A stretch of DNA of 64,000 nt from Escherichia coli (GTDB taxonomy: Bacteria; Pseudomonadota; Gammaproteobacteria; Enterobacterales; Enterobacteriaceae). Under the pieces are notes generated by a model. That model was not told the origin of the DNA. It did not search any database and saw only the letters and a list, made by a program, of their open reading frames with translations. The stretch lies in assembly GCF_013122565.1 (NCBI RefSeq), contig NZ_CP053258.1; one strand, given 5' to 3'. Shown here one piece after another: positions 29,450 through 57,348 of the stretch. The position numbers and the translations under genes were made by a program. The stretch's first letter is position 1. Each line of letters starts with the position of its first letter.

Positions 29450-30622
29450 TTACGCGCTGACCTGGCTGGCGAAATTCACCAGGTACTGATCGGTGATGCG
29501 CTGGCGCAGCATCAGATTTTCAAGTGGTGGCACTGGCGTGTAGTCATAGTCGATGGTGAGTTTTCCGGCTTTCAGCGTGTCTTTGTCGTTCACTGACTCG
29601 TCCAGCCAGCAATCACCACCAATGAGATAGCCCTGACTGACCAGGCTGCGCATTTTGGCGCGGATGCCCTCGATAATGTCGCGCGCCAGCGACGGGTTCA
29701 GCGGTTTGTCCACCGCCCACATGTGCGCTTCTGCCATTGTGTCCGTCAGCACCTGCGCCGTGCGGGTGTAGTTTTCGAAGGCAAAAAGCGGATCATCGCT
29801 CAGACAGCGGGAACCCCAGAAGCGGAAACCATCCTTGCGCACAAGCGTGGTGACGTCGTTCTGGTTAAGCAGTCCCGCATCGGTTGCCGGGTCCTGCAGA
29901 TCCCAGAACACATCAGCAGAAATTCCGGTGACACCGTTCACGCCCACGTTGGACAGGCTTTTGTGCCACCCGGTCTGCTCATCAATTTTGGCGCGCAGAC
30001 CGAGCGCACGAGCGGTGGCATATGCCGTTGCTTCGGCATTCAGCACCGTGTCCCAGCCAGTAAAGTCAGGCCAGATCAGCATCCCTTCGCGCTGGCTGAA
30101 GTTTTCGCGGTAAGTGATCGCCTCCTGCACTGTCTTGCAGCCATACGCTGACAGGTAAGCAAACCCACGCAGGCTTTGCGCCACTCTCAGCAACTCAGTC
30201 GCAACGGCTTTGTTATCGTGGCCTGGCACGCCGAGAATGCGCGGTTTAACGCCGAGCTGTAACTGGGCAGATAACAGAGCTTTCATGCCTGTTTTTTTAC
30301 CTTCAGCAGTCACTGCGCCGATGATATTGGTCGTGGTTTCTTCTTCCGTTTCCCCCTGCGGCACACGCACAACAACGGTCACGGGTTTTGCCTGGTCAGC
30401 GATGGCATCCAGCGAACGGGCCAGCGTGCCGGACTCACCCGCTTTACCGCTGGCAGTCAGCACATCAGTGATCAGCACGGGTTTATTAAGAGGAAACATT
30501 TTTGCATCGGCATCATCGCCCGTGCAGACCATACCCACGATGGCGGTGCTCACCGTGGTAATGGATCGGGTGCCTTCGTTGACTTCAACAACGCGCACTC
30601 CGTGGTGGTAATCCTGAGCCAT
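29450..30622 (-). CDS. FI: tail sheath protein FI
   Basis: 390-aa ORF at P2 FI position. Confidence 0.85.
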
Positions 30623-30698
30623 AGTGGCGAACCTCCTGATTGGATTAGGCTTCGCCCTATGTTGAAGTGATTGTGCCTGACAAACAGCTAAGCGCAGT

Positions 30699-30716
30699 TG
30701 TGTCGTTATTCACACA
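30699..30716 (-). promoter_or_regulatory. Ogr-type late promoter dyad TGT-N12-ACA upstream of FI operon
   Basis: tgtgtcgttattcacaca about 80 bp upstream of FI start. Confidence 0.5.
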
Positions 30717-30764
30717 AAATAACGGTATTTGTCCGCTTACAGGAAAAATCAAAATAATGCTGAC

Positions 30765-31336
30765 TCAGGGCGATTCATTGTTCTCATTCGCCAGAAATTT
30801 TCTATAAATGGTAGAAACGCCCACATCAAAAATCAGTGCAATACGCTGTCTTGATTCTCCGGCCTCGAGTAAACGTCCAATCTGTGCCCACTGTTCGGTA
30901 GTCAACTTAGGACGGCGTCCACCTACTCTGCCTTTAGCACGAGCTGCAGCCAGCCCTTCCCTGGTACGTTCAACTATCAGTTCGCGTTCCATTTCAGCCA
31001 GGGCACCCATGACATGAAAAAAGAAACGGCCCATTGGGGTACTGGTATCAATACTGTCAGTCAGACTTCTGAAATTCACGCCGCGCTGGCGCAACTCTTC
31101 TATCAGAGTAACAAGATGCGCATACTGCGCCCCAACCTGTCCAGCTTCCAGACAACCAGTGTGTCACCTGCCGATAGTGTCCTGAGCAGCTTTTTCAGCC
31201 CTGGTCTGTCGGACTTGGTGCCACTGATTTTATCCTCAAAAATCCGCTCACATCCCGCGCAGTTCAGTGCATTACGTTGCAAATCGGTGTTCTGGTCATT
31301 TGTTGACACGCGTACATAGCCAATAAGCATGATCAT
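30765..31336 (-). pseudogene. Hin/Gin/Pin-family serine DNA invertase, disrupted by frameshift
   Basis: N-terminal 77-aa ORF (MIMLIGYVRVSTNDQ.. catalytic Ser) ends at in-frame TGA; C-terminal 109 aa continue in another frame; about 1-nt indel near 31117. Confidence 0.7.
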
Positions 31337-31387
31337 CCCTCTGAATAAAAACCGGAGATGATGCCAGTTAGCCGTAATCTCTGCATT

Positions 31388-31412
31388 TTCATAAACGTTG
31401 GTTTGGGAGAAG
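31388..31412. repeat. invertase crossover site (gix/cix-like), right copy
   Basis: ttcataaacgttggtttgggagaag; 15-bp perfect inverted repeat of the site at 33216..33240. Confidence 0.65.
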
Positions 31413-31756
31413 CGGCGAAAAGGGATGTGGGCACAGGAGATAATCAGATACCGGATATGGGAGCATTCGCTTCTGGTTCGGGATGGTTCAGGCTACCAGG
31501 TGGATATATTGTTCAGTTTGGCACTTTTTCAGGAAACACGACCCGCTTTATCAGTGGACACTTCCCTATACCATTCCCTAATCAGCCGATGGTTTCAGTC
31601 AGTGTTATGTCTGATGCCGTTCAGTCAGACCCGTCGATTCCTGCCCCGCAGGTTTTGTCTGTAAATTTTGAACATATCAGTAATTCAGCGTGGCGTGTGG
31701 CAACCAGTGATATCTCACAGCAATACAGATTCAGTTATATTTCGATAGGACGGTAG
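31413..31756 (+). CDS. alternative tail-fibre C-terminal variable segment (silent in this orientation)
   Basis: Plus-strand frame shares ..GLGE.. junction with H at the crossover site; no independent start. Confidence 0.5.
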
Positions 31757-31758
31757 AA

Positions 31759-32199
31759 ATGCAGAAATATATTTTCAGTGCCGATAAAAATGCGTTTTTC
31801 CCTGTGGAGCTTAAAATCGCTTATCAGGAATCCGGCGAATGGCCCGATGATGGAATCGAAATTGACGACACTGTTGCCGCCGAATTTATGAAGGAAGCAC
31901 CAGAAGGAAAATACAGAGGTGTCATCGACGGAATGCCTGCATGGATTGATATTCCACCGCCAACTCATGAGGAACAAATTGCCGCAGCCGAATTGGAAAA
32001 GCAGCAATTGATTAATCAGGTCAACGAATACATAAACAGTAAGCAATGGCCTGGTAAAGCGGCGATTGGTCGCCTGAAAGGTGAGGAACTGGCGCAATAT
32101 AATTTGTGGCTGGATTATCTGGACACACTGGAACTGGTCGATACTTCCGGTGCGCCAGATATTGAATGGCCTACGCCTCCGGCAGTTCAGGCCAGATGA
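31759..32199 (+). CDS. tail fibre assembly protein (alternative, Tfa')
   Basis: 146-aa ORF with conserved Tfa C-terminal pattern (..WPTPP..). Confidence 0.7.
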   Translation: MQKYIFSADKNAFFPVELKIAYQESGEWPDDGIEIDDTVAAEFMKEAPEGKYRGVIDGMPAWIDIPPPTHEEQIAAAELEKQQLINQVNEYINSKQWPGKAAIGRLKGEELAQYNLWLDYLDTLELVDTSGAPDIEWPTPPAVQAR

Positions 32200-32764
32200 C
32201 ATCCGGCGCAGTGCTGGTATCTGTTACCGTCACCGCGTCAATATAATCCAGCACGGCGTTAAGTCGGGTTGTTTCTGCCTGCGTCAGCTTCCGCCCGGCC
32301 TGTAATTTCAGTTGAATCAGACTGATGGAAGCCATTGCAGCATCGATCAGCGACTGGCGCTGTGCTTCTGCCGCGTCTACTGCGGCACTATGCTGTGCCT
32401 CAGTATCTGTCACCCATTTCTCACCATCCCATTTATCGTATGGCGTTAACGGTGAAAGCGTGACATAACCGTCTTTGATGGCACCGATATAATCCACTGT
32501 AACAGCTGCGCCATTTTCTGTTGAGTAAACAGTCTCATTGCGATGGTCTTCTTCATGGCTCCATCCCTTACCCGTAAATACTGCCACTCTTCCCGGAATG
32601 TATTCGCCCGGGTCAATACCAGTGGAACAGGCGGGCATACTTACGCCAGTATTAATATATTCATCAGACCAGCCAGTATATTCATACGTAACTGCCTCAT
32701 AATAAAAACAACGCATATTACCAGGTACTGTAGCCAGCCCATTTTCATCAAAAACAGGTTTCAT
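32171..32764 (-). CDS. G: tail fibre assembly protein G
   Basis: 197-aa ORF directly downstream of H; Tfa-like C-terminus (..VIWPELPEA). Confidence 0.75.
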   Translation of the reverse strand: MKPVFDENGLATVPGNMRCFYYEAVTYEYTGWSDEYINTGVSMPACSTGIDPGEYIPGRVAVFTGKGWSHEEDHRNETVYSTENGAAVTVDYIGAIKDGYVTLSPLTPYDKWDGEKWVTDTEAQHSAAVDAAEAQRQSLIDAAMASISLIQLKLQAGRKLTQAETTRLNAVLDYIDAVTVTDTSTAPDVIWPELPEA

Positions 32765-35781: not shown

Positions 35782-36127
35782 TCTCTGCTCCTGTTGATAC
35801 GGAAAGGGAAACAGGCACACCGTTATTCCGCCGCCCGGTCAGCTCCACCACCATTGAACCGTCAAAATTGCTGTTGATGGTGATGGAATCCAGCGTCATC
35901 CTTGGCTCCCAGCGACTCAGCGCCACATACACTGCCGACATGACCTGCAGGTGTAATGCCGGATTTTGTGGCTGGTCTATCAGTGCCGACAGCAGGGAAC
36001 CATATTCCCGACGGGCAATGCGGCTACCCTGCGGCGTCAGCAAAATGTCCCGCACCGACTGGCGCAGATGGTCCGTGTCTGTAATAGTTTTTCCGTTGTT
36101 CTGACTCATGCCGATATACAGCGTCAT
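35768..36127 (-). CDS. W: baseplate protein W
   Basis: 119-aa ORF at P2 W position. Confidence 0.8.
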   Translation of the reverse strand: MTLYIGMSQNNGKTITDTDHLRQSVRDILLTPQGSRIARREYGSLLSALIDQPQNPALHLQVMSAVYVALSRWEPRMTLDSITINSNFDGSMVVELTGRRNNGVPVSLSVSTGAENGSD

Positions 36128-36702
36128 ACCGGGCCTCCGGTTGTATCGCCGCCTTTCAGGACGCCAGTATGCTGATGCGCATCAACCACGATCCCGTTAG
36201 AACTCATCGCTCCGCCGCCCTGGGTAACGCCACCATTGATCACAACTTCGCTGTTAATGCGCGTGCGGTCAGCCTCCAGTACAAACTCACTGGTTTTCAG
36301 GGTGATATTGTCAGCGGCCTCAATGACCATGGATTTGATGCCCCTGACATACCAGCGCCCGGTGGCGGGTTCGTATTCAAACCAGCCACCGTCTGGGTAC
36401 TCAACCACGTTGCCGTCCTCAGAGTCTGAAGGTGGTGGAAACTGATTTGAGTAGACAGCAGGCAGGGCAAACGCGGTTTCCAGATTGCCACCCAGGCTGA
36501 ACAGCACAACCTGCTCGCCCACAGACGGTTTCCACCAGGTGCGCGATTTGCCCGCGCGCAGTGTCAGCCAGTTAATCCAGTTGGTTTCGAGGTCGCCCGT
36601 TTTCACCCGACACAGCCAGTTTTCCCGGTCCACTTCGGTGACTACACCTGTGCGAATCAGATTGGTGATAAGGCGCATGATTTCGGTTAGTTGTGCATTC
36701 AT
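36124..36702 (-). CDS. V: baseplate spike protein V
   Basis: 192-aa ORF at P2 V position. Confidence 0.8.
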   Translation of the reverse strand: MNAQLTEIMRLITNLIRTGVVTEVDRENWLCRVKTGDLETNWINWLTLRAGKSRTWWKPSVGEQVVLFSLGGNLETAFALPAVYSNQFPPPSDSEDGNVVEYPDGGWFEYEPATGRWYVRGIKSMVIEAADNITLKTSEFVLEADRTRINSEVVINGGVTQGGGAMSSNGIVVDAHQHTGVLKGGDTTGGPV

Positions 36703-36750
36703 GTCGACGATATTTGCACAAACATATATTGTGGGACATTGAGTCAGAAA

Positions 36751-36768
36751 TGTATGACTTACTACACA
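36751..36768 (-). promoter_or_regulatory. Ogr-type late promoter dyad TGT-N12-ACA upstream of V operon
   Basis: tgtatgacttactacaca about 50 bp upstream of V start. Confidence 0.5.
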
Positions 36769-36795
36769 ATGTTTATCCGCGCAAAGGAGTTACAG

Positions 36796-37701
36796 ATGAC
36801 ACAAATCGGTATCTATGGATATTGCTTCACGAAAGAATTTACTTTTAAAGGAGGGACACTGATACCTCGTTACAAATCCTTTAAGGAACTAAAAGAGAAT
36901 AAATGCGATGGAAGCGAATATGTATTAAGTGGATTTTTCTCTCCCGCACATGCTTCTGAAAACACCGTCACTCAAATAATTTATGATCTTTCAGCTGTTT
37001 TAAGTTTCATTGAACAAAAAAATGTAATCATATCAAACTTCCTAGAGGAACATGAAACACCTGAAAAGTTAGATAATAATTTCCCACTAAAATTGAAGTC
37101 AAAAAGAAAGTCATCACTAGGAATAATTGTTGAAGATTACTTCTCTGAAAAGAGTCGCTCAGCGTTCATTGAGCTTGCGATGGATAAACTTCATAGAAAT
37201 ATTAATTCTCATCAAAACCCTTTTAGAACTGCGTTCTATAAGTCTATATTTTCTTTTAGGGAAAGAATGGACTATGTAGATGTTAAATACTTCCTTAATT
37301 TCTCAGCATTAGAATCCCTGTGCAGATATATCGATAACGAGTCGACATCTAGTTATACACCACAAATAATTACAAAGGTTTTAAAAGATTATGGTTTTAA
37401 TGTATCTAAAGAAGGCAACCCTGTACCACAAAGAAACGTGATTCACTATTGCACGCTTCGAAACTCTCTATTCCACAATGGAAATTATATTGGATACATT
37501 AAGAAAGATGATCCAAGCAGTATCATTAAATTAAGTGATTATTATTCAAATCTAAATTTACTTTTACCTTTAGTATTAATGAAATATATAGGATTCGATG
37601 ATGGATTAATTAACTGGGACTCATGGATAGACTATGAACCATTTCTCGCCCTCAGGCCTAAAAACTTAACTCCATCGAATGGTAAACAATCAATTAGATA
37701 G
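36796..37701 (+). CDS. hypothetical moron protein with Rx4H (HEPN-like) motif
   Basis: 301-aa ORF (MTQIGIYGYCF...), RBS aggag upstream, about 33% GC, opposite strand to flanking tail genes; ..CTLRNSLFHNG.. motif. Confidence 0.6.
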   Translation: MTQIGIYGYCFTKEFTFKGGTLIPRYKSFKELKENKCDGSEYVLSGFFSPAHASENTVTQIIYDLSAVLSFIEQKNVIISNFLEEHETPEKLDNNFPLKLKSKRKSSLGIIVEDYFSEKSRSAFIELAMDKLHRNINSHQNPFRTAFYKSIFSFRERMDYVDVKYFLNFSALESLCRYIDNESTSSYTPQIITKVLKDYGFNVSKEGNPVPQRNVIHYCTLRNSLFHNGNYIGYIKKDDPSSIIKLSDYYSNLNLLLPLVLMKYIGFDDGLINWDSWIDYEPFLALRPKNLTPSNGKQSIR

Positions 37702-38136
37702 CCAGCGCAATAATACATCGTGGGTTAAGGATTCTACGTCATCATTAATACCTAACAAACGACGCTCTGCGTAACGGACCTCCGGTCCTTTGCGACTAAC
37801 GCGATCACGCAGGCCGTAATGGTGAACACGGGCAATACGCTGCACCTTGCCTTCAAACTGTACGCTGGCAGAGTCGGCGCTGGCGGCAGTTTTCAGGTAT
37901 TTTGTGGTGCGCAGCTTTGCAAACATCTGACGTTTGATGCGCCCCTTCTTGCTACGTGCTGTTACCCTGCGCGGTTCATAACTGCTGCCATCTGGATTGC
38001 GCTGCATCCTGATATTCTGCTGCTGTGTCCGGCGCAGTTCCTGCGCCAGCTGGCGCATCATGCGGCTTCTCGTGGCTGGTTCCAGATTCGCCAGCAAGGC
38101 ACTCAGCCAGTCGTCCACCTTCTGCAGTTCAGCCAC
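37690..38136 (-). CDS. S: tail completion protein S
   Basis: 148-aa ORF at P2 S position. Confidence 0.8.
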   Translation of the reverse strand: MAELQKVDDWLSALLANLEPATRSRMMRQLAQELRRTQQQNIRMQRNPDGSSYEPRRVTARSKKGRIKRQMFAKLRTTKYLKTAASADSASVQFEGKVQRIARVHHYGLRDRVSRKGPEVRYAERRLLGINDDVESLTHDVLLRWLSN

Positions 38137-43263: not shown

Positions 43264-45030
43264 ATGAACACCACACTGACACCCGCAGATCTCGATCCCC
43301 GTCGGCAGGCCATGCTGCTGTACTTTCAGGGATACCGCGTAGCCCGCATTGCTGAAATGCTGGGCGAGAAAGTTGCAACCGTTCACAGCTGGAAAAAACG
43401 CGACAAGTGGGGTGACTATGGGCCGCTGGATCAGATGCAGCTCACCACCGCCGCACGCTACTGCCAGCTCATCATGAAGGAGCACAAAGAAGGGAAAGAT
43501 TTCAAAGAGATTGACCTGCTGGCGCGCCAGTCTGAGCGCCACGCGCGGATCGGCAAGTTTAACAATGGCGGCAACGAATCCGACTTAAACCCTAACGTCG
43601 CCAACCGCAACAAAGGCCCACGCCGTCAGCCGGAAAAGAATGTTTTCACCGATGAGCAGATTGAGAAGCTGGAAGAAATCTTCCATTCCTCCATGTTCAA
43701 CTACCAGCGCCACTGGTGGGAAGCCGGAAAAACCAACCGCATCCGCAACCTGCTGAAGTCACGCCAGATCGGCGCGACCTTTTACTTTGCCCGTGAAGCC
43801 CTGATTGACGCCCTGCTGACCGGACGTAACCAGATTTTCCTTTCCGCCAGCAAGGCACAGGCCCACGTCTTTAAGCAGTACATCATCGACTTCGCCAAAG
43901 AAGTGGAGGTGGAGTTGAAAGGCGATCCGATGGTGCTTCCTAACGGGGCCACGCTTTACTTCCTCGGCACCAATGCCCGCACGGCCCAGAGTTATCACGG
44001 CAACCTGTATCTGGATGAATATTTCTGGATACCGAAATTCCAGGAGCTGCGCAAAGTGGCTTCCGGTATGGCTATTCACAAGAAATGGCGACAAACCTAT
44101 TTTTCCACGCCATCCAGCCTGACACACAGTGCTTATCCGTTCTGGTCCGGTGCGCTATTCAACCGTGGGCGCAACAAAGCCGATAAGGTGGACATCGACC
44201 TGTCCCACAGCAATCTGGCCCCCGGCCTGCTGTGCGCAGACGGGCAATACCGCCAGATTGTCACCGTGGAAGATGCAGTGCGCGGCGGATGTAACCTGTT
44301 CGACCTCGATCAGTTACGCATGGAGTACAGCCCGGACGAATACCAGAACCTGCTGATGTGCGAGTTTGTGGACGATCTCGCGTCTGTGTTCCCACTCAGC
44401 GAGCTGCAGGCGTGCATGGTGGACAGCTGGGAAGTCTGGACCGACTTTCATGCACTGGCACTGCGCCCATTTGGCTGGCGCGAAGTGTGGATCGGTTATG
44501 ACCCGGCGAAAGGTACGCAGAACGGCGACAGTGCCGGATGCGTGGTGGTGGCACCGCCAGCCGTGCCGGGCGGCAAGTTCCGCATTCTTGAGCGTTACCA
44601 GTGGCGCGGGATGGACTTTCGCGCCCAGGCTGACGCCATCAAAAAACTGACCGAACAGTACAACGTGACCTATATCGGCATCGACTCAACCGGCGTTGGT
44701 CACGGGGTTTATGAGAACGTGAAAGCGTTCTTTCCTGCCGTCCGGGAGTTTGTCTACAACCCCAACGTTAAAAACGCCCTGGTACTCAAGGCCTACGACA
44801 TTATCAGCCACCGCCGTCTGGAGTTTGACGCCGGGCACACCGACATTGCGCAGTCATTCATGGCAATCCGTCGCGCCACCACCGCCAGTGGCAACCGCCC
44901 GACCTATGAAGCCAGCCGCAGCGAAGAAGCCAGCCACGCCGATCTGGCCTGGGCAACGATGCACGCACTGTTTAACGAACCGCTGCAGGGCGAATCCGCC
45001 AATACCAGCAATATTGTGGAGATTTTTTGA
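43264..45030 (+). CDS. P: terminase large (ATPase) subunit P
   Basis: 588-aa ORF at P2 P position. Confidence 0.85.
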   Translation: MNTTLTPADLDPRRQAMLLYFQGYRVARIAEMLGEKVATVHSWKKRDKWGDYGPLDQMQLTTAARYCQLIMKEHKEGKDFKEIDLLARQSERHARIGKFNNGGNESDLNPNVANRNKGPRRQPEKNVFTDEQIEKLEEIFHSSMFNYQRHWWEAGKTNRIRNLLKSRQIGATFYFAREALIDALLTGRNQIFLSASKAQAHVFKQYIIDFAKEVEVELKGDPMVLPNGATLYFLGTNARTAQSYHGNLYLDEYFWIPKFQELRKVASGMAIHKKWRQTYFSTPSSLTHSAYPFWSGALFNRGRNKADKVDIDLSHSNLAPGLLCADGQYRQIVTVEDAVRGGCNLFDLDQLRMEYSPDEYQNLLMCEFVDDLASVFPLSELQACMVDSWEVWTDFHALALRPFGWREVWIGYDPAKGTQNGDSAGCVVVAPPAVPGGKFRILERYQWRGMDFRAQADAIKKLTEQYNVTYIGIDSTGVGHGVYENVKAFFPAVREFVYNPNVKNALVLKAYDIISHRRLEFDAGHTDIAQSFMAIRRATTASGNRPTYEASRSEEASHADLAWATMHALFNEPLQGESANTSNIVEIF

Positions 45031-46064
45031 TGGGAAAGAGTAAGAAGAACCGAGCTGCGGCGACGAAACAGATCCAGCTTAAAAGTCAAACTACAGCCGA
45101 AGCATTCAGCTTCGGCGATCCCGTTCCTGTTCTGGACCGCCGAGAATTACTGGACTATGTGGAATGCGTACAGATGGACCGTTGGTATGAGCCGCCCGTC
45201 AGCTTTGACGGACTGGCGCGCACCTTCCGCGCTGCAGTGCATCACAGTTCCCCGATTGCAGTAAAGTGCAACATTCTGACCAGTACCTACATCCCTCACC
45301 CGCTGCTCAGCCAGCAGGCTTTTTCACGTTTTGTGCAGGACTATCTGGTATTTGGTAACGCCTACCTGGAGAAACGCACGAACCGATTCGGTGAAGTTAT
45401 CGCCCTTGAGCCTGTGCTGGCAAAATACACCCGACGCGGGTTAGACCTGGATACCTACTGGTTTGTGCAATACGGCATGACTACACAGCCGTATCAGTTC
45501 ACGAAAGGCAGCATTTTTCACCTGATGGAACCGGATATCAACCAAGAGATCTACGGCCTGCCCGGTTATCTTTCTGCCATTCCGTCAGCCCTGCTCAACG
45601 AGTCCGCCACGCTGTTCCGCCGCAAGTATTACATTAACGGCAGCCACGCAGGCTTCATCATGTACATGACCGACGCCGCGCAGAACCAGGAGGATGTAAA
45701 CAACCTCCGTAACGCGATGAAAAGCGCCAAAGGACCAGGCAACTTCCGTAACCTGTTTATGTACTCGCCGAACGGCAAAAAGGACGGGCTTCAGATCATC
45801 CCATTGTCTGAAGTCGCGGCAAAGGATGAGTTTCTGAATATCAAAAATGTTAGTCGCGATGACATGATGGCGGCACACCGCGTGCCGCCGCAAATGATGG
45901 GGATTATGCCTAATAATGTTGGGGGGTTTGGGGATGTGGAGAAAGCGAGTATGGTATTTGTGAGGAATGAATTAATTCCTCTACAAAGGCGTTTAGAAGA
46001 GCTTAATTTGTGGCTAGAAGAGGAAGCCATAAAATTCAAACCATACAATTTATCAGATAATTAG
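45027..46064 (+). CDS. Q: portal protein Q
   Basis: 345-aa ORF overlapping P stop, P2 Q position. Confidence 0.85.
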   Translation: MMGKSKKNRAAATKQIQLKSQTTAEAFSFGDPVPVLDRRELLDYVECVQMDRWYEPPVSFDGLARTFRAAVHHSSPIAVKCNILTSTYIPHPLLSQQAFSRFVQDYLVFGNAYLEKRTNRFGEVIALEPVLAKYTRRGLDLDTYWFVQYGMTTQPYQFTKGSIFHLMEPDINQEIYGLPGYLSAIPSALLNESATLFRRKYYINGSHAGFIMYMTDAAQNQEDVNNLRNAMKSAKGPGNFRNLFMYSPNGKKDGLQIIPLSEVAAKDEFLNIKNVSRDDMMAAHRVPPQMMGIMPNNVGGFGDVEKASMVFVRNELIPLQRRLEELNLWLEEEAIKFKPYNLSDN

Positions 46065-46108: not shown

Positions 46109-47869
46109 CTATATGCTGCATATTTTTTTATAATGTTCAAAAACATCTTTAAAAGTGTTGAGTATTATTTCAAAACCACTAAAATCAACTTTTCGTTTTT
46201 TATCCCTAACTACTTTCACAGAGAAAACATGTTTCCCATATTCAGTTTTTGAGTCCCCATCGTTCTTTTTGTTAAATTTTTTACCACCAAGAATAGTTGA
46301 TAATACATCATGAGTAAAAAGATCTTCCATCGCAGTCTGCTCACCAGTAGCACTTAAAGGCGTTAGAATGATATAGAGATTTTTAAAGACATGGATAAAT
46401 CTCATTTTTCTCATTTTATTGGTATCATCGGGGCAGCTCTTAACATTATTTTTAAGGAAATTCAAAATCTCATTAGAACCAGAATCGTTGTCCAATACCA
46501 TGATAACCGGGTGCTTAGGAATGCTTCCATAGTAGCTTGAATATTCATCCATATATCTTTCGATGAATTTTTTAAGATCTGCGCTACCTCCAGACATATT
46601 AATAAAATAACTTGACTTCTCATCAGATTTAAAAATATTCAAGTTGATATCATTTCCTTTACCGTCTGTGCTTTTCTTGAGCAACTCAGGAAATTTGGCA
46701 GAAAGTGAACGAATAGCTGATTTTAAATATACTCGATCAGTTTTGCCTTCTGTCAAGATTGTCGGGGAAGCATGTCCATGAAAAAACTTGTAGTAAATAA
46801 ATTTACTATATGCCTTCTCTCGTACATTCAGCTTTAACCTGTAGTTTTTTAATGTAATATGAATAGGCGCATATTTTTCAGGCTGTTTACTTATTTTATC
46901 TTGTATGTTATTAAATTTATCAATCTGGTCAATAAACCCAAATCTTCCCTCTAGTTTTTCGATACTCCCCACGACTAGCTTACCATCTTCATCAGGTAGC
47001 TTATATTCTCCCTTACTATAAAGTGAATGAGCTAATGCTCTTGTTTTATTCGAATATTTCCTATCAACGTTAACAAATCTATTTATAGTAAGTCCCGTAA
47101 CTTCTTGTCTCGTGGATTTGTACGAGATCCTTGTTTTAGCATCATTAATATCAAAACCAGCACGTTTTATTTCACTGACAAGAATGCTCCCCAAGACAAC
47201 CCCCTCAGGAAGAGATATTGCCAAATCGGTAGGAAATTCTTTTTTATTAGTTGAAAACGTGATGTCATCGGCATAACGACTATATGAACAACCTAAACTC
47301 TTTGCTAATTTAGCTAATCTAATATCCATAATGCTACAAATTAAGTTTGTTATCACTGGAGAACACGGGCTACCCTGAGGCAAACTTCCCTTATAGCATG
47401 CGGCTTTAGCTAAAGTAGTGGCGACAATCGGATTTAATAAGAAATCCCTATTGGATAGGAAGTACCCTCTCACTCGCCCAAAATTAAAGCTTTTGAAAAA
47501 ATCCTTAAGATCAATATTGAGTATTATATTTTTCCCACGATGTCTGAAAGCATTGGAAATTATTGACTTATTTCTTTCAAAACCAAAGGAGTAATTGTTT
47601 TTAATTTTTTTAATTTTGAAAGTTTCATCTCTACACTCCATTAAAAGATCGGCTATTCGTCTTTGGAGATCTTTCAAACTATCTTCTGGCGCAGAAATCA
47701 ATCTGACTCCCTTACCTTTTTTTGGAATAGAGAAATCTTTATACTGATTATCAGTACCAATTCTGTAAAGAATATTCGTTAAAAACACCAACTTAACATC
47801 TAGCAATTTTGCCAAGTCAGCACGAGATGCTGCGACTTTCAAAAGTAGTAATTTAGAAGTTGCGACCAT
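46109..47869 (-). CDS. ret: retron-type reverse transcriptase with C-terminal Toprim-like domain (Ec67/Retron-Eco2-like)
   Basis: 586-aa ORF; RT motifs [12 protein letters not shown] and YADD; C-terminal ..ILTEGKTD.. and ..VLDNDSG.. resemble Toprim E and DxD motifs; about 33% GC. Confidence 0.8.
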
Positions 47870-49639: not shown

Positions 49640-52054
49640 TTAATACAGGTTCCGCCACTTATCATCTTCCTGCAAACGCTGGTTCCGATAGAAGATACGC
49701 AGGCCTGCTCCTGACGGAATACTGCCGCCGCGAAGGAGTAAATCGACCTCTTTCTCGCTGCCATCAAATCCTCTGGACTTCAGTTCATAGACGAGCTGCT
49801 GTCGCTGATGGTCTGTAATTCGCTGTTTGTAGTCTTTACGCCGTTTCGGTTTCACCAGGCGTAACCTTGCAGCCAGTTCCCGGCGCTCTTTTTTGCTCAT
49901 ACTGTGCAGGTATTCGTGCAACTCCTTGTCATCCATGCGGGTAATGTCCGTTCTGGTATCCCCATCAGCTGATTTGTCTTTCCCTTGTTGGTTCAAATTT
50001 TCAGCAAGGGGACAGTTATTGCCACGAGTCCAAGGGGCGCAAGCGCCCTGGTCGGCTACCGCCTCCTGAACGTCAACGGCTTTACGAACCATTTTCCACT
50101 TCACTGCATGAGTGCAGATCTTGCCCTCTGCAATGGGTGACCAGATGCCATAAATACGAATGCCGTGATCGCCATAGGCGGTCGGCTCTTCGTTAATTTC
50201 ATAAGCAGTTCTGATGAGGTGATATTTGCGGGGAACCAGTACGCCGCCCTGCTTCATGATGTAAGTGGCAAAACAACCAGCATCAGCAGCAGCCAGGATT
50301 GCATCAAGGCGCGGGTTATCCAGTACCGGCGCACCTGCTTTTTTGTCCCCCTGTTGCCTTGCCGCCTGACCAGCCAACAATCGCAGTTCACGGTAAGCCT
50401 GACGCCCCGGAATGCCAAAGAAGCGGAATTGCTGAACACGATGCAAAGACGCCCAGGCATTCACGTATTCAGCGTTATCACGCAGAGATTTACCCGTTTC
50501 CTTGCTGATCTCGCCAGCCAGACCACGCCCGTCAATGTTCTTACTGATGTATTTCGCGATGTAGCTTGTTGGCGTACCTTTGCGCGGGTTTATCAGCTCA
50601 GACTTAAAGCGTGGTCCCGTGTTATTACCCAGCTCCTCGCGGTCTTCACGAATGGCAAACTTACGCAACAAAGCAGTAATGGCTCGGCGATCTTTTTTGC
50701 GCATAAAACACAACAGGTGCCAGTGCACTGTACCGTCATGATGCGGCTCAGCCACCCGCACGCCATACCAGCGCAATCCGGCTTTGTGCATCGCTTTACG
50801 AAATGCAGCAAACATGCCGACCAGATAATCACTGCTTTGTCTTACCGTCGCGTTTGTCCAGGTCGGGTTTGGTCTGCCGTTATTTAGCGTGGAATGGAAA
50901 CGTGACGGACAGGTGATGGTGTAGAAAACGGCGCAGTCACCGCGCATTTCCGCGATAAGCTCCAGACCTTTAACACAGGCCATCATCTCATTGCGGCGAT
51001 GCGCAGGGTTGCTGCTGCTGGCGTTTACCACGTCTTCCATATCCAGCGTGTCGCCGTCTTCGTTCACCAGTTCATGAGAACGAAAAAACTCCAGCGACTT
51101 ACGGCGCTGCTCACGTTTATGCATCACGGCTTCATAGCTGACATAGGGAGATGCTTTTTTGCTGACCAGGCAGACAGCGCGCAACTGCTCTTCCCGCCAT
51201 TCGCAACGCATCTTCCATAATTTCCGATACCACCAGTCGGCGCACAACATACGCGCCAGCGAACCCGGAATGAGTTCATAGGGCACGGGTTTACGGCGGT
51301 TTCTTTTCCGGCGGAGTTGCTCAAACGCAGGTGGGATGACATCCAGTCGCAGGGTTTCTGCTGCCACCCTTTCCCATGTCTTGCGGATTTCTTCTGGCTT
51401 AACGTCATCGGTGGCATACAAATCGCCACAAGCTGCATCAAGGCACATGCTCATATGCGCAGCTACCAGGGTGGACAGGCGTTTCACCTGATCCTGACTC
51501 ATTTCAGGCAGGATCAGCAGGCCGTCCAGCCCTTCCTGGCTCGCCATAAAGCGAAAAGCAGTGGATAGCTGACTGTCGCGTACATGCTCCAGCCGTTCCA
51601 GACATGGCTTAATCGTCTCACGCAAATAGCGGGAATAAGCCTTTGGCCTGCCCAGGCTGCTGAAGTATTCAATACGTTGCATCAGCGGCTTGCTGATATG
51701 GGAAGGCTGGGCGTTAACGTCCGCCAGAATGACCATGTCTGGATTAAAACGCTGCTGCTCATGCGCCAGCTTTGCCCGGCTAATGAGCTTATCCTGCTCT
51801 ATTTCGCGTTGGACAGGATCACGGGATTCATTAAAGAAATAACGCTCCCAGACCTGATCACTCAGAGCCTCGCGGCGCAGTTGTTCCTGCTCGTTATCGG
51901 CAGCGTACAGAGTGATCAGGTTTGAAAGCGCAGAAACCGGCGCAACTTCCGCCGGGTCCAGATAAGGGTTAATGGCCTTTTTCGGGCTGTTCCATGAGAA
52001 TGCTGCGGCGACCTCGTTAAAGCCGCTGCAGTTGTTCATATCATCATGGCTCAT
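49640..52054 (-). CDS. A: replication initiation protein A (rolling-circle nickase)
   Basis: 804-aa ORF at P2/186 gene A position. Confidence 0.85.
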
Positions 52055-52908
52055 GCACGCACTCCGTACATGGCAGAACTATCCACGCCACGCGAAGGAT
52101 CAAATCCCACCCAGCAGCGCGCCCCGGAAACAGCAATGATTTCTGTTGCAGATTTACTCTCGCCAGCCGACACGCCGATGCTGCGTTTTGCCTTGATGTA
52201 GTGGTGAGTGAAATTGCGATACAGCGAACGAATCAGGGATGTGTCACTGTTAGAAACAATGACCGGATGTCCTTCAGATGCTCGATGTTCAAGAACGGAT
52301 GCCAGGTGATACTGGTCATCTTCAGTGAAACCATCAGTGTGATAGCCGGAAAACGTACCGTCATACGGCGGATCGCAATACACCACATCCCCCGCCTTCA
52401 ACATCGCCAGCGTTTCATCAAAGCTGGCGCAGATAAACGTTGCCCGCTGGGCTTTTTCTGCAAATGCGCGAATTTCTTTTTCAGGGAAATACGGATTTTT
52501 ATAATTACCGTAGGGAATGTTGAAATGCCCGCTCTTGTTATAGCGACATAAACCACGGTAACCGTGACGATTGAGATACAGGAAATATACCGCTTTCATG
52601 AAATCAGTAATTTCAGTGGAGTAATTAAACTCCTGCCTTATGTTGTAATAAGCCACCTCCCTGTTTGCGATCTCAAATAAAACTCTGGCGCGAGATATAA
52701 ACGATTCACAATCAGCGGCAACCTTTTTATAGAGGTTGATTAAATCAAGATTAATATCCGCAACCAGATAGCTTGGATAATCCGTCTCCATCATCACAGC
52801 ACAGGAACCCGCGAAAGGTTCAACCAGTCGCGGGCCAGCAGGAAGGTGTTTTTTCAGTTCGGACATAATTGCGGTTTTATTTCCCGCCCATTTCAGGATG
52901 GTGCTCAT
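52051..52908 (-). CDS. DNA adenine methyltransferase (Dam-like, phage-encoded)
   Basis: [11 protein letters not shown]..., DPPY catalytic motif, [16 protein letters not shown]; resembles E. coli Dam. Confidence 0.85.
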
Positions 52909-53132
52909 ACAGCACCTCCGTTGTAATGTTTGCCTTTCAGCTCTGCGATTTCCTGACAGGTAATGCAAAGCTGCACTCCCGGAATGGCGCGGCGTCGTGC
53001 TGGCGGAATTGGCGCTTCACATTCAATGCAAAGTACGCGTGACACGCCCGGTGATTTGGCACGGGCTGCACGGATATGGCGCTGGCGTTCTTCTTCAACG
53101 CGCTGCTGTACGAGATCCATTGCATCAGCCAT
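52905..53132 (-). CDS. TraR/DksA-family C4 zinc-finger protein
   Basis: 75-aa ORF with CIECEAPI...CITCQ. Confidence 0.7.
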   Translation of the reverse strand: MADAMDLVQQRVEEERQRHIRAARAKSPGVSRVLCIECEAPIPPARRRAIPGVQLCITCQEIAELKGKHYNGGAV

Positions 53133-55671: not shown

Positions 55672-57348
55672 ATGAATTCATTTGCCATCGTTATACTCTT
55701 ATTAGCATTTCTCGCCCCTGTTCTAGCTGTAATATTATTTAAACAAAGTAAAAAACACAAAGCGGCTATAGATAACCTGACAGCTAACAACATAGCCCTT
55801 TCTAACCAACTGATTGAAAATCAAGAAAAACTAGCACAGACCGTACGAGAATTATCAGATCTTGAAGGGCGAGCAGCACCATTGTGGCAATACGAAGAAT
55901 TGCACAGCGCAGTAATGGATGCAGAGAATAAGATAAAAAATGCGGACTCAATAGCCAAGCAAAAAATAGATGAAGCCCAAATTAAGGCGGCTAAAACAGT
56001 AAACGAAGCAAATTATCAAGCTCAGATAACAATAAGCAACGCTAATAGCGAAGCTATAGCAATCACCAAAGACGCTCGCGATGCACGCCTGAAAGCCAAA
56101 GAACGTCTTGATAATGCTAATAATAAAGCAAATGAGCTAATCTCAAATGCTAATGACAATGCAGTAAAAATTATTTCTGATGCAGAAGAAAGAGCAAAGG
56201 AGATTGCTGGTTCAGCATATGAAGCTAAAGAGTTTGCAGAAAAATATGAAGCAGTTGCAAAATCAATGAAAAATAAAATTGAAGGTTATGGTGATGAATG
56301 GATCATCCCTAACCGTAGTGTACTTGATGAGCTGGCAGAAAATTATGAATTTACAGATGCAGGCAAGGAATTACAAAAAGCCAGAGAGTTAACCAAATCA
56401 TTAATAAAAACTAATAAAGCTGCTTCGTGTGATTATGTTGAGCAAAACAGGCGTAATACTGCCATAAACTTTGTTTTGGATGCCTTCAATGGAAGAGTTG
56501 ACAGTATTTTATCAAAAGTCAAACACAACAATTTTGGAAAACTTTCCCAAGAAATAAAAGATGCATTTCAACTAGTAAATTACAATGGCTCTGCCTTTAG
56601 GTCCGCAAAAATAAGTGACATCTATCTTCAGGCAAGACTCAACGAGCTAAAATGGGGTGTAGCAGTTAATGAAATTATGCTCGAAGAAAAAGAAGAGCAA
56701 AGAAGGATTAAAGAACAGCTTCGTGAAGAGGAAAGAGCTCGTAGAGAATATGAAAAAGCGATAAAAGAAGCTGAAAAAGAAGAAAAAGCTATTCAGCAAG
56801 CTATAAATAAAGCAACGAAAGAACTTATGCTTGCAAATGAAGAACAACGCTTAGCTTTAGAGCAAAAAATAGCTGAACTACAGTTAAAATATGAAGAAGC
56901 TGAAGCTAAAAATCAACGAGCTATTTCTATGGCTCAACAAACCAGATCAGGCCACGTCTATATCATTAGTAATATTGGTTCATTTGGCGAAGATGTATAT
57001 AAAATTGGAATGACACGCCGCCTTGAACCACTTGATCGTGTTCGTGAACTCGGAGATGCTAGTGTTCCTTTTTCGTTCGATGTTCATGCGATGATTTATA
57101 GTGATGATGCACCATCATTAGAAAACCATCTGCATAAAGTTTTCAACGAAAAGCAGGTCAATAAAATTAACTCACGAAAAGAGTTTTTTAACGTAAATTT
57201 AAAAGAAATCAAATCAGTTATTGAAGACATGAACATCAACGCCCACTGGACAATGTTTGCAGAGGCGAAAGAATATAGAGAGTCTCTAGCTATTGAGCAG
57301 GAGCGCAAAGCAGCCACTTCCGCCAACGATGAACTACATGTTGCTTAG
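55672..57348 (+). CDS. membrane-anchored coiled-coil protein with C-terminal T5orf172/GIY-YIG-like domain
   Basis: 558-aa ORF; N-terminal TM; long coiled-coil repeats; C-terminal GHVYIISN...YKIGMTRR...RVRELG; about 37% GC; between cI and int. Confidence 0.65.
   Translation: MNSFAIVILLLAFLAPVLAVILFKQSKKHKAAIDNLTANNIALSNQLIENQEKLAQTVRELSDLEGRAAPLWQYEELHSAVMDAENKIKNADSIAKQKIDEAQIKAAKTVNEANYQAQITISNANSEAIAITKDARDARLKAKERLDNANNKANELISNANDNAVKIISDAEERAKEIAGSAYEAKEFAEKYEAVAKSMKNKIEGYGDEWIIPNRSVLDELAENYEFTDAGKELQKARELTKSLIKTNKAASCDYVEQNRRNTAINFVLDAFNGRVDSILSKVKHNNFGKLSQEIKDAFQLVNYNGSAFRSAKISDIYLQARLNELKWGVAVNEIMLEEKEEQRRIKEQLREEERARREYEKAIKEAEKEEKAIQQAINKATKELMLANEEQRLALEQKIAELQLKYEEAEAKNQRAISMAQQTRSGHVYIISNIGSFGEDVYKIGMTRRLEPLDRVRELGDASVPFSFDVHAMIYSDDAPSLENHLHKVFNEKQVNKINSRKEFFNVNLKEIKSVIEDMNINAHWTMFAEAKEYRESLAIEQERKAATSANDELHVA

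Follow-up and report, generated by a model that had tools for sequence, protein, structure and literature searches.

The gene studied here lies in a P2-like prophage within a 64,000-nucleotide stretch of an Escherichia coli genome (NCBI RefSeq assembly GCF_013122565.1, contig NZ_CP053258.1), which is referred to as the window throughout. It occupies positions 36796–37701 on the plus strand, starts with ATG and encodes a 301-residue, two-domain protein of PHROG 4373, a short Apea-like HEPN family; we refer to it as the cargo gene. The same coding sequence is called by RefSeq in identical prophages. Its only neighbours at the locus are two tail genes, the baseplate spike gene V (36124–36702, minus strand), which is the first gene of the V-W-J-I-H late operon, and the tail completion gene S (37690–38136, minus strand), which is the last gene of the upstream late operon. 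Both flanks are of the P2 type, as revealed by Pfam matches to Phage_base_V and Phage_tail_S in an identical contig and by the RefSeq names at a 99.9%-identical locus.

The cargo gene is inserted between the activator site of the V promoter and the stop codon of S, on the strand opposite to both flanking late operons. At its 3' end it converges with S, and the ORF coordinates of the two genes overlap by 12 bp (37690–37701). At its 5' end, a Shine-Dalgarno motif AAGGAG (36784–36789, plus strand) can be read 6 nt upstream of the ATG. A longer version from a TTG at 36691 would overlap the start of V and finds no support among the homologues, every one of which begins at the ATG. The GC content of the cargo gene is 0.325, as compared with 0.558 for V and 0.546 for S, and that of its third codon positions is 27.8%. 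An earlier note on this DNA, made from the sequence alone, had described an AT-rich gene of 301 codons between V and S, with its own ribosome-binding site and opposite in strand to its neighbours; the coordinates, the GC contents and the AAGGAG motif all bear this out. Judging from conservation, the ORF is more than a chance occurrence, since it has homologues of the same length (44 close ones and 188 at the cluster level) in which R222 and H227 are conserved.

Regulatory signals around the cargo gene

A TGT-N12-ACA dyad at 36751–36768, found as a single occurrence of the pattern, corresponds to the Ogr (late activator) site that P2-type phages have in the promoter of the V operon, and the P2 annotation places an activator site at the same relative position. 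The dyad can be aligned across S/V sites and is kept whether these are empty or occupied. It marks the V-side edge of the cassette, and the cargo starts immediately beyond it. Bidirectional use of the dyad was considered and rejected, as transcription starting about 55 bp away from its centre would begin within the ORF.

The promoter search revealed no convincing sigma-70 promoter in the 93-bp spacer upstream of the cargo gene. The best candidate, TCGACG-15-TATATT (36704–36730), is weak, with a 9/12 match and a 15-nt spacer. Because no good sigma-70 match lies upstream, expression of the cargo gene in the lysogen is an assumption of our reading. At the other end, the terminator scan gave no terminator-like site between the cargo gene and S, so that late transcription would cross the cargo gene in the antisense direction. 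Speculatively, such antisense transcription would suit a gene meant to be active in the lysogen and silent during lytic growth.

The S/V slot of P2-like prophages

The earlier note stated that P2 has no gene at this position, which turns out to be wrong: P2 carries Orf30 there, a non-essential protein of 261 residues encoded between S and V on the opposite strand. Homology between the cargo protein and Orf30 was considered and dismissed (BLASTP E 4.5). The slot has also been noted as variable in phage R18C (PMC6823313). Sequences matching the flanks are present in 1050 of 5426 complete E. coli genomes, and the cargo gene in only 7.

We took a census of the slot in a rank-spread sample of E. 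coli prophages, which provided 49 sites covering both flanks. Thirty-four of these are empty, with a 1176-bp span and a 68-bp spacer, and the other 15 are occupied by one gene each. At least six different genes are found among the 15 occupied sites. Genes of the Orf30/DUF6216 type account for six sites, a TIR-domain protein gene on the tail-gene strand for two, and the cargo HEPN gene, a 56%-identical allele of it and an FRG-domain protein gene (PADLOC candidate PDC-S15, E 8.5e-32) for one each. Hypothetical proteins occupy the remaining four, and the two of these that we looked at (384 and 401 residues) contain no informative domain. The TIR protein has 265 residues (E. coli K99B, locus L015, 774–1574) and gives weak PADLOC matches to PDC-S66, SpbK and ThsB, and the FRG protein has 311 residues (ETEC4077, locus L016, 783–1718).

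The variability of the slot extends into its flank. The last ~50 bp of S (~15 codons; 37690–37740 in the window) vary with the cargo, as observed at loci L014 and L016–L019, and S consequently gains a different C-terminal tail with each cassette. A cassette swap thus replaces the C-terminal end of a tail-completion protein that is itself essential, and in the present prophage S ends inside the cargo gene.

Comparison of two E. coli prophages indicates how the cassette moves. The cargo genes are 99.7% identical, whereas V is only 96.2% and S only 95.5% identical, which suggests that the cassette has moved recently from one prophage backbone to another. The close alleles differ by 0 synonymous and 2–3 non-synonymous changes, too few for an informative dN/dS. 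The cargo gene is a horizontally acquired moron: its GC content deviates from that of its surroundings, it has its own orientation, and it is present, absent or replaced among collinear prophages.

Other islands of the prophage and the window

Several other features were observed in the window. A retron-type RT-Toprim fusion of 585 residues (46109–47869, minus strand; PADLOC RT-Toprim_I-C, E 1e-212; GC ~0.33) is encoded between the portal gene Q (45027–46064) and the replication gene A (49640–52054), which is the classical tin/old hotspot of P2. Directly downstream of A lies the gene for an orphan Dam-like DNA methyltransferase of 304 residues (52051–52968, minus strand; PADLOC oMTase, E 2.7e-111). 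Near the regulatory and integrase end, a protein of 558 residues (55672–57348, plus strand; GC ~0.35) matches PD-Lambda-1 (PADLOC E 3e-120), and its island is the third low-GC cargo island of the prophage. The equivalent of the P2 Z/fun hotspot, with its ORFs assigned by size and order, spans ~1.1 kb (30622–31756) between the sheath gene FI (29450–30622) and putative tail-fibre assembly genes (31735–32764); it holds an ORF of 132 codons (31358–31756, plus strand) that has no PADLOC match. Well outside the tail and head block, an AT-rich stretch of 2 kb at 1001–3000 (GC ~0.33) carries minus-strand ORFs at 1177–2277 and 2240–2959.

The cargo protein belongs to a discrete family

The cargo protein matches phrog_4373, which is annotated as of unknown function, from end to end (residues 1–283 on positions 1–282 of the 283-position profile, E 1.5e-111). 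A search of 5.8 billion proteins gave 44 relatives of 37–99% identity from Escherichia, Klebsiella, Salmonella, Pantoea and Acinetobacter, and a profile search of 1.84 billion cluster representatives gave 188 clusters, in which nearly all full-length members have 270–300 residues. Given this number of clusters and this narrow length range, PHROG 4373 is a small, discrete family of uniform length (~285 residues). Two alignments were used, one of 26 close relatives (A1) and one of 54 diverged sequences (A2), the latter with a mean column identity of 25% and with members that share as little as ~20–30% identity. The near-invariant positions of A2 include G8, P24, E173, R177, R222, F226, H227 and W277; D269 and N273 are, like E173 and R177, polar positions that are almost invariant across the family.

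Curated collections do not recognise the family. PADLOC-DB v2 gave no match for the cargo protein (E ≤ 1) or for ten diverged relatives (E ≤ 10), NCBIfam gave only a chance match to TviA (14 bits against a cutoff of 303), and Pfam gave only a chance match to SBDS, with no HEPN_Apea match in the cargo protein or its 26 close relatives. Among the 54 wider relatives, Pfam HEPN_Apea (PF18739) appears below threshold, at E < 0.1 in two sequences, with a best value of 8.2e-3 and none below 1e-3. A precomputed 'faint' match of one relative to PF26308 (YopA_M) was not reproduced locally and was retained as no more than a loose lead. The view of the earlier note that the protein cannot be assigned to a named family can be refined: it matches phrog_4373, and its relatives in the AlphaFold database are named 'Apea-like HEPN domain-containing protein'.

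A conserved Rx4H motif in a predicted HEPN fold

The segment C-T-L-R-N-S-L-F-H-N-G, residues 219–229 of the cargo protein, contains the Rx4H catalytic signature R222-N-S-L-F-H227, whose codons lie at 37459–37476 on the plus strand. R222 and H227 are invariant in A1. By column counts in A2, the arginine, the following N/H/D and the histidine are each retained in 53 of 54 sequences, and 52 of them preserve R-[N/H/D]-x-x-[F/Y]-H in full. Set beside the definition of HEPN domains (Anantharaman et al. 2013, PMC3710099), the motif has the most typical HEPN form, in which a polar residue follows the arginine.

An AlphaFold2 model, built from a 26-sequence alignment, has a mean pLDDT of 86.8 and a pTM of 0.85, and disorder is confined to the last 14 residues, which most relatives do not have. 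The predicted secondary structure divides the protein into two domains. The N-terminal alpha/beta domain (approximately residues 1–115; 36796–37140, plus strand), a candidate sensor or regulatory domain, has conserved positions in GIYGY, in LSFIEQ and at G109/D114. The C-terminal helical domain (approximately residues 120–285; 37153–37650, plus strand) carries the conserved segments SALESLxR and GFDDGxINWDSW, and in the model it adopts the all-alpha up-and-down helical bundle of the HEPN superfamily.

The best structural matches of the C-terminal domain of the model are minimal HEPN proteins: TTHA0636 (1wwp) and HI0074 (1jog), both with a score of 6.9, followed by the HepT toxins 8xdj (6.5), 5yep (5.9) and 7ae2 (5.8), YutE (1ylm; 5.7) and the HEPN domain protein 4nqf (5.5). 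Foldseek comparison with AFDB50 returned the family itself at TM 0.8–0.96, mostly under the Apea-like name given above. It also returned weak full-length matches (E 1e-4 to 1e-3, TMq ~0.5) to 'ApeA N-terminal domain-containing' proteins of 400–560 residues and, at the same weak E values, 'YopA central domain' proteins. Foldseek gave nothing significant against the PDB, and no close solved structure was found in the PDB copy searched. When the PDB was searched with sequence profiles, A1 turned up one chance match (2p1a, E 0.034) and A2 none, and a profile search aimed at bona fide ApeA proteins returned the PHROG 4373 family alone.

The structural half of our interpretation, the HEPN assignment, is thus supported along three independent lines: the conservation of the motif, the predicted C-terminal fold, and the Apea-like names and structural links. 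The earlier note had proposed an Rx4-6H HEPN reading on the basis of the motif and had suggested structure prediction as a check of the fold; the motif is kept across the family, and the C-terminal domain of the confident AlphaFold2 model is HEPN-like. A HEPN fold could also serve without nuclease activity, as a nucleotide-binding or scaffold protein with another role in lysogenic conversion, or the gene could be a decaying passenger. We consider this improbable, as the catalytic arginine and histidine and the polar residue after the arginine are almost invariant, together with E173, R177, D269 and N273. In addition, full-length ORFs are found in 188 clusters, and the cassette has apparently spread recently between backbones.

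Relatives in other genomic contexts

The same slot and orientation are found for relatives in Klebsiella phage ST437-OXA245phi4.1 (57% identity), in Salmonella phage RE-2010 (35% identity) and in a Pantoea P2-like prophage. Other relatives lie elsewhere: in Klebsiella variicola within an integrase/resolvase island, and in Acinetobacter sp. ME22 alone among chromosomal housekeeping genes. In the deltaproteobacteria, a 33%-identical relative is encoded in a contractile-injection or tail-like cluster (L022/L023, 5085–8701), downstream of and on the same strand as VgrG-like (Phage_GPD plus Phage_base_V) and PAAR genes, and it adjoins genes for an HNH protein and for ParE-like and Phd/YefM toxin–antitoxin proteins. 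Adjacency to a spike gene thus recurs on contigs of a very different lineage.

This deltaproteobacterial arrangement, together with the constant abutment of the gene on the spike gene V in P2-like phages, would suit a cargo toxin, that is, an effector of contractile tail-like machines encoded beside the spike. Such a role is very improbable in our view. In P2-like phages the gene is on the strand opposite to V and outside the late operons, and a divergent start from the late-activator dyad would fall inside the ORF. Furthermore, an adjacent immunity gene is absent, some relatives have no tail genes nearby, and the other occupants of the slot include TIR and FRG proteins, which are typical of defence islands.

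No partner gene is conserved across the five different genomic contexts, and as no neighbour is common to all of them, the cargo protein appears to act alone. Consistent with this, the island leaves no room for a partner, so that the single-gene character proposed in the earlier note agrees with what we observe. The cognate antitoxin whose presence was to be checked is not found adjacent to the gene, and 36400–38000 contains neither tandem repeats nor an Rfam match that might betray a hidden antitoxin or RNA partner. These observations bear on the reading of the cargo protein as an addiction or toxin–antitoxin toxin that stabilises the prophage and has no defence role, with an unrecognised antitoxin that might be a small embedded ORF, a partner encoded in the chromosome or an antisense RNA. 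Among solved structures the HepT toxins of HEPN/MNT pairs are indeed nearest in fold, and the deltaproteobacterial relative adjoins ParE-like and Phd/YefM genes. By comparison, the gene has no MNT or other partner beside it, in this prophage or in the other contexts inspected, the island has no tandem repeats or Rfam RNA and only ~93 bp of non-coding DNA, and the extra N-terminal domain points to regulation built into the protein itself. We accordingly regard an addiction toxin as a poor candidate.

A further alternative is an RNase that serves the phage, either in counter-defence by degradation of cyclic oligoadenylates or in remodelling the RNA of the host upon induction or superinfection. 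Besides cutting RNA, HEPN domains are described to 'deplete cyclic oligoadenylate signals'; the gene sits within the block of virion genes and in the same slot in several P2-like genera, and no defence model matches its product. Against this, the gene runs counter to the late operons and towards S, which would make late transcription antisense to it; its relatives exist outside any phage, and most P2-like prophages do without it. Neither a CARF domain nor any other cyclic-nucleotide-sensing domain was detected in the protein. Service to the phage is therefore unlikely, if still worth naming.

Comparison with known HEPN systems and P2 cargo

ApeA is a single-gene HEPN abortive-infection system (Gao et al. 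2020). Its ~580 residues make up an N-terminal domain, a Mid domain and a split HEPN_ApeA domain; it assembles into rings of ten or twelve subunits and cuts tRNA anticodon loops, and one variant is activated by 5'-phosphorylated deoxydinucleotides (bioRxiv 10.64898/2026.01.26.701840). Like ApeA, the cargo protein is a single protein that has no partner gene, in which a non-catalytic N-terminal part precedes a C-terminal Apea-like HEPN domain with insertions, and it shares the R-N-x-x-x-H signature. Unlike ApeA, it has 301 residues in two domains instead of ~580 in three, it has no PADLOC match, and no sequence-level link to ApeA is detected even with family profiles. We class it as a short ApeA-like variant rather than a member of ApeA, because of its half size, its two domains, the lack of recognition by PADLOC and the sub-threshold Pfam HEPN_Apea matches.

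In its predicted C-terminal fold the cargo protein resembles the HepT toxins (PDB 5YEP, 7AE2, 8XDJ) and the minimal HEPN proteins (1WWP, 1JOG), at a sequence identity of 8–13%. It differs from HepT in that no MNT nucleotidyltransferase antitoxin gene is adjacent, either here or in the other contexts examined, and in that it carries an extra N-terminal domain of 115 residues and insertions in the HEPN domain. DARNA/PD-T7-3 is a single HEPN anti-phage protein that belongs to the mobilome of E. coli and aborts infection by cutting tRNA anticodon loops (bioRxiv 10.64898/2026.02.22.705581). It joins an Rx4H effector to a built-in sensor domain and so resembles the cargo protein, a single HEPN protein whose N-terminal domain is a candidate sensor. 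However, DARNA has 456 residues with the HEPN domain at the N-terminus, whereas the domain order of the cargo protein is the reverse and no PADLOC PD-T7-3 match is found.

Among P2 cargo, Orf30 (DUF6216) shares the slot, the opposite-strand orientation and the nature of a non-essential single-gene cargo, but it is an unrelated protein with neither a HEPN motif nor a PADLOC match. The defence hotspots described for P2 (Rousset 2022, PMC9122126; Vassallo 2022, PMC9519451), namely Z/fun and the tin/old position between genes A and Q, likewise hold AT-rich swappable cargo, and the S/V slot is a location separate from both.

Discussion

Our analysis suggests that the cargo gene is a prophage moron encoding an N-terminal alpha/beta domain joined to an Apea-like C-terminal HEPN RNase, made in the lysogen as a single-gene abortive-infection protein, a reading to which we give somewhat better than even credence. 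A self-contained abortive-infection RNase seems the most likely interpretation because the gene is foreign and swappable, the HEPN motif and fold are accompanied by an extra domain, no partner is present and the neighbourhood is of the defence type. In the last regard, we count in favour of defence the company that the gene keeps at the slot, namely a TIR protein and an FRG protein matching PDC-S15, and the two recognised defence genes that the same prophage carries in equally AT-rich islands. The abortive-infection or toxin function in the lysogen, which the earlier note had proposed, is suggested by analogy and by location. We infer the RNase activity, the dimerisation, the expression in the lysogen, the trigger, the RNA target and the anti-phage phenotype in the same manner.

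A mechanism can be proposed, every step of which is modelled on ApeA, DARNA/PD-T7-3 and other HEPN systems that consist of a single protein. The protein would be produced in the lysogen and kept inactive, and the pairing of two HEPN domains would create a composite Rx4H active site. A cue from an infecting phage may be sensed in the non-catalytic domain, or in a pocket between the two domains, and thereby bring about activation. The RNase would then cleave RNA of the host, with mRNA or the anticodon loops of tRNAs as the most likely targets, so that translation halts and the infection aborts, which would protect the clonal population of lysogens and the resident prophage.

We further propose, tentatively and with somewhat less than even confidence, that the S/V junction is a third, unrecognised hotspot of single-gene defence, whose cassettes, encoding short HEPN, TIR, FRG and unknown proteins, are swapped together with the last codons of S, and that the cargo protein founds a 'mini-ApeA' class, a HEPN sensor-effector of ~285 residues that would combine sensing and self-restraint at half the mass of ApeA, possibly with another trigger.

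Variation at the S/V slot (Orf30), HEPN abortive-infection proteins and cargo hotspots of P2 are all well established. The hotspots described in Vassallo 2022 (PMC9519451) are confined to the tin/old and fun positions, a search by terms through Rousset 2022 and a 2026 follow-up preprint revealed no mention of the S/V slot, and the literature searched contains no experimental work on the PHROG 4373 family or on the slot as a defence site. What is new here is a compact variant of the HEPN single-protein kind, which is missed by current tools (PADLOC and Pfam thresholds), and its significance is incremental. If it protects against phages, the cargo protein would provide a compact and easily studied single-protein HEPN immune nuclease, and with it a handle on the minimum protein needed to couple the sensing of infection to RNase activation. 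Protection would likewise mark the S/V slot, which roughly one in five complete E. coli genomes contains, as a further site to be mined for one-gene defence systems.
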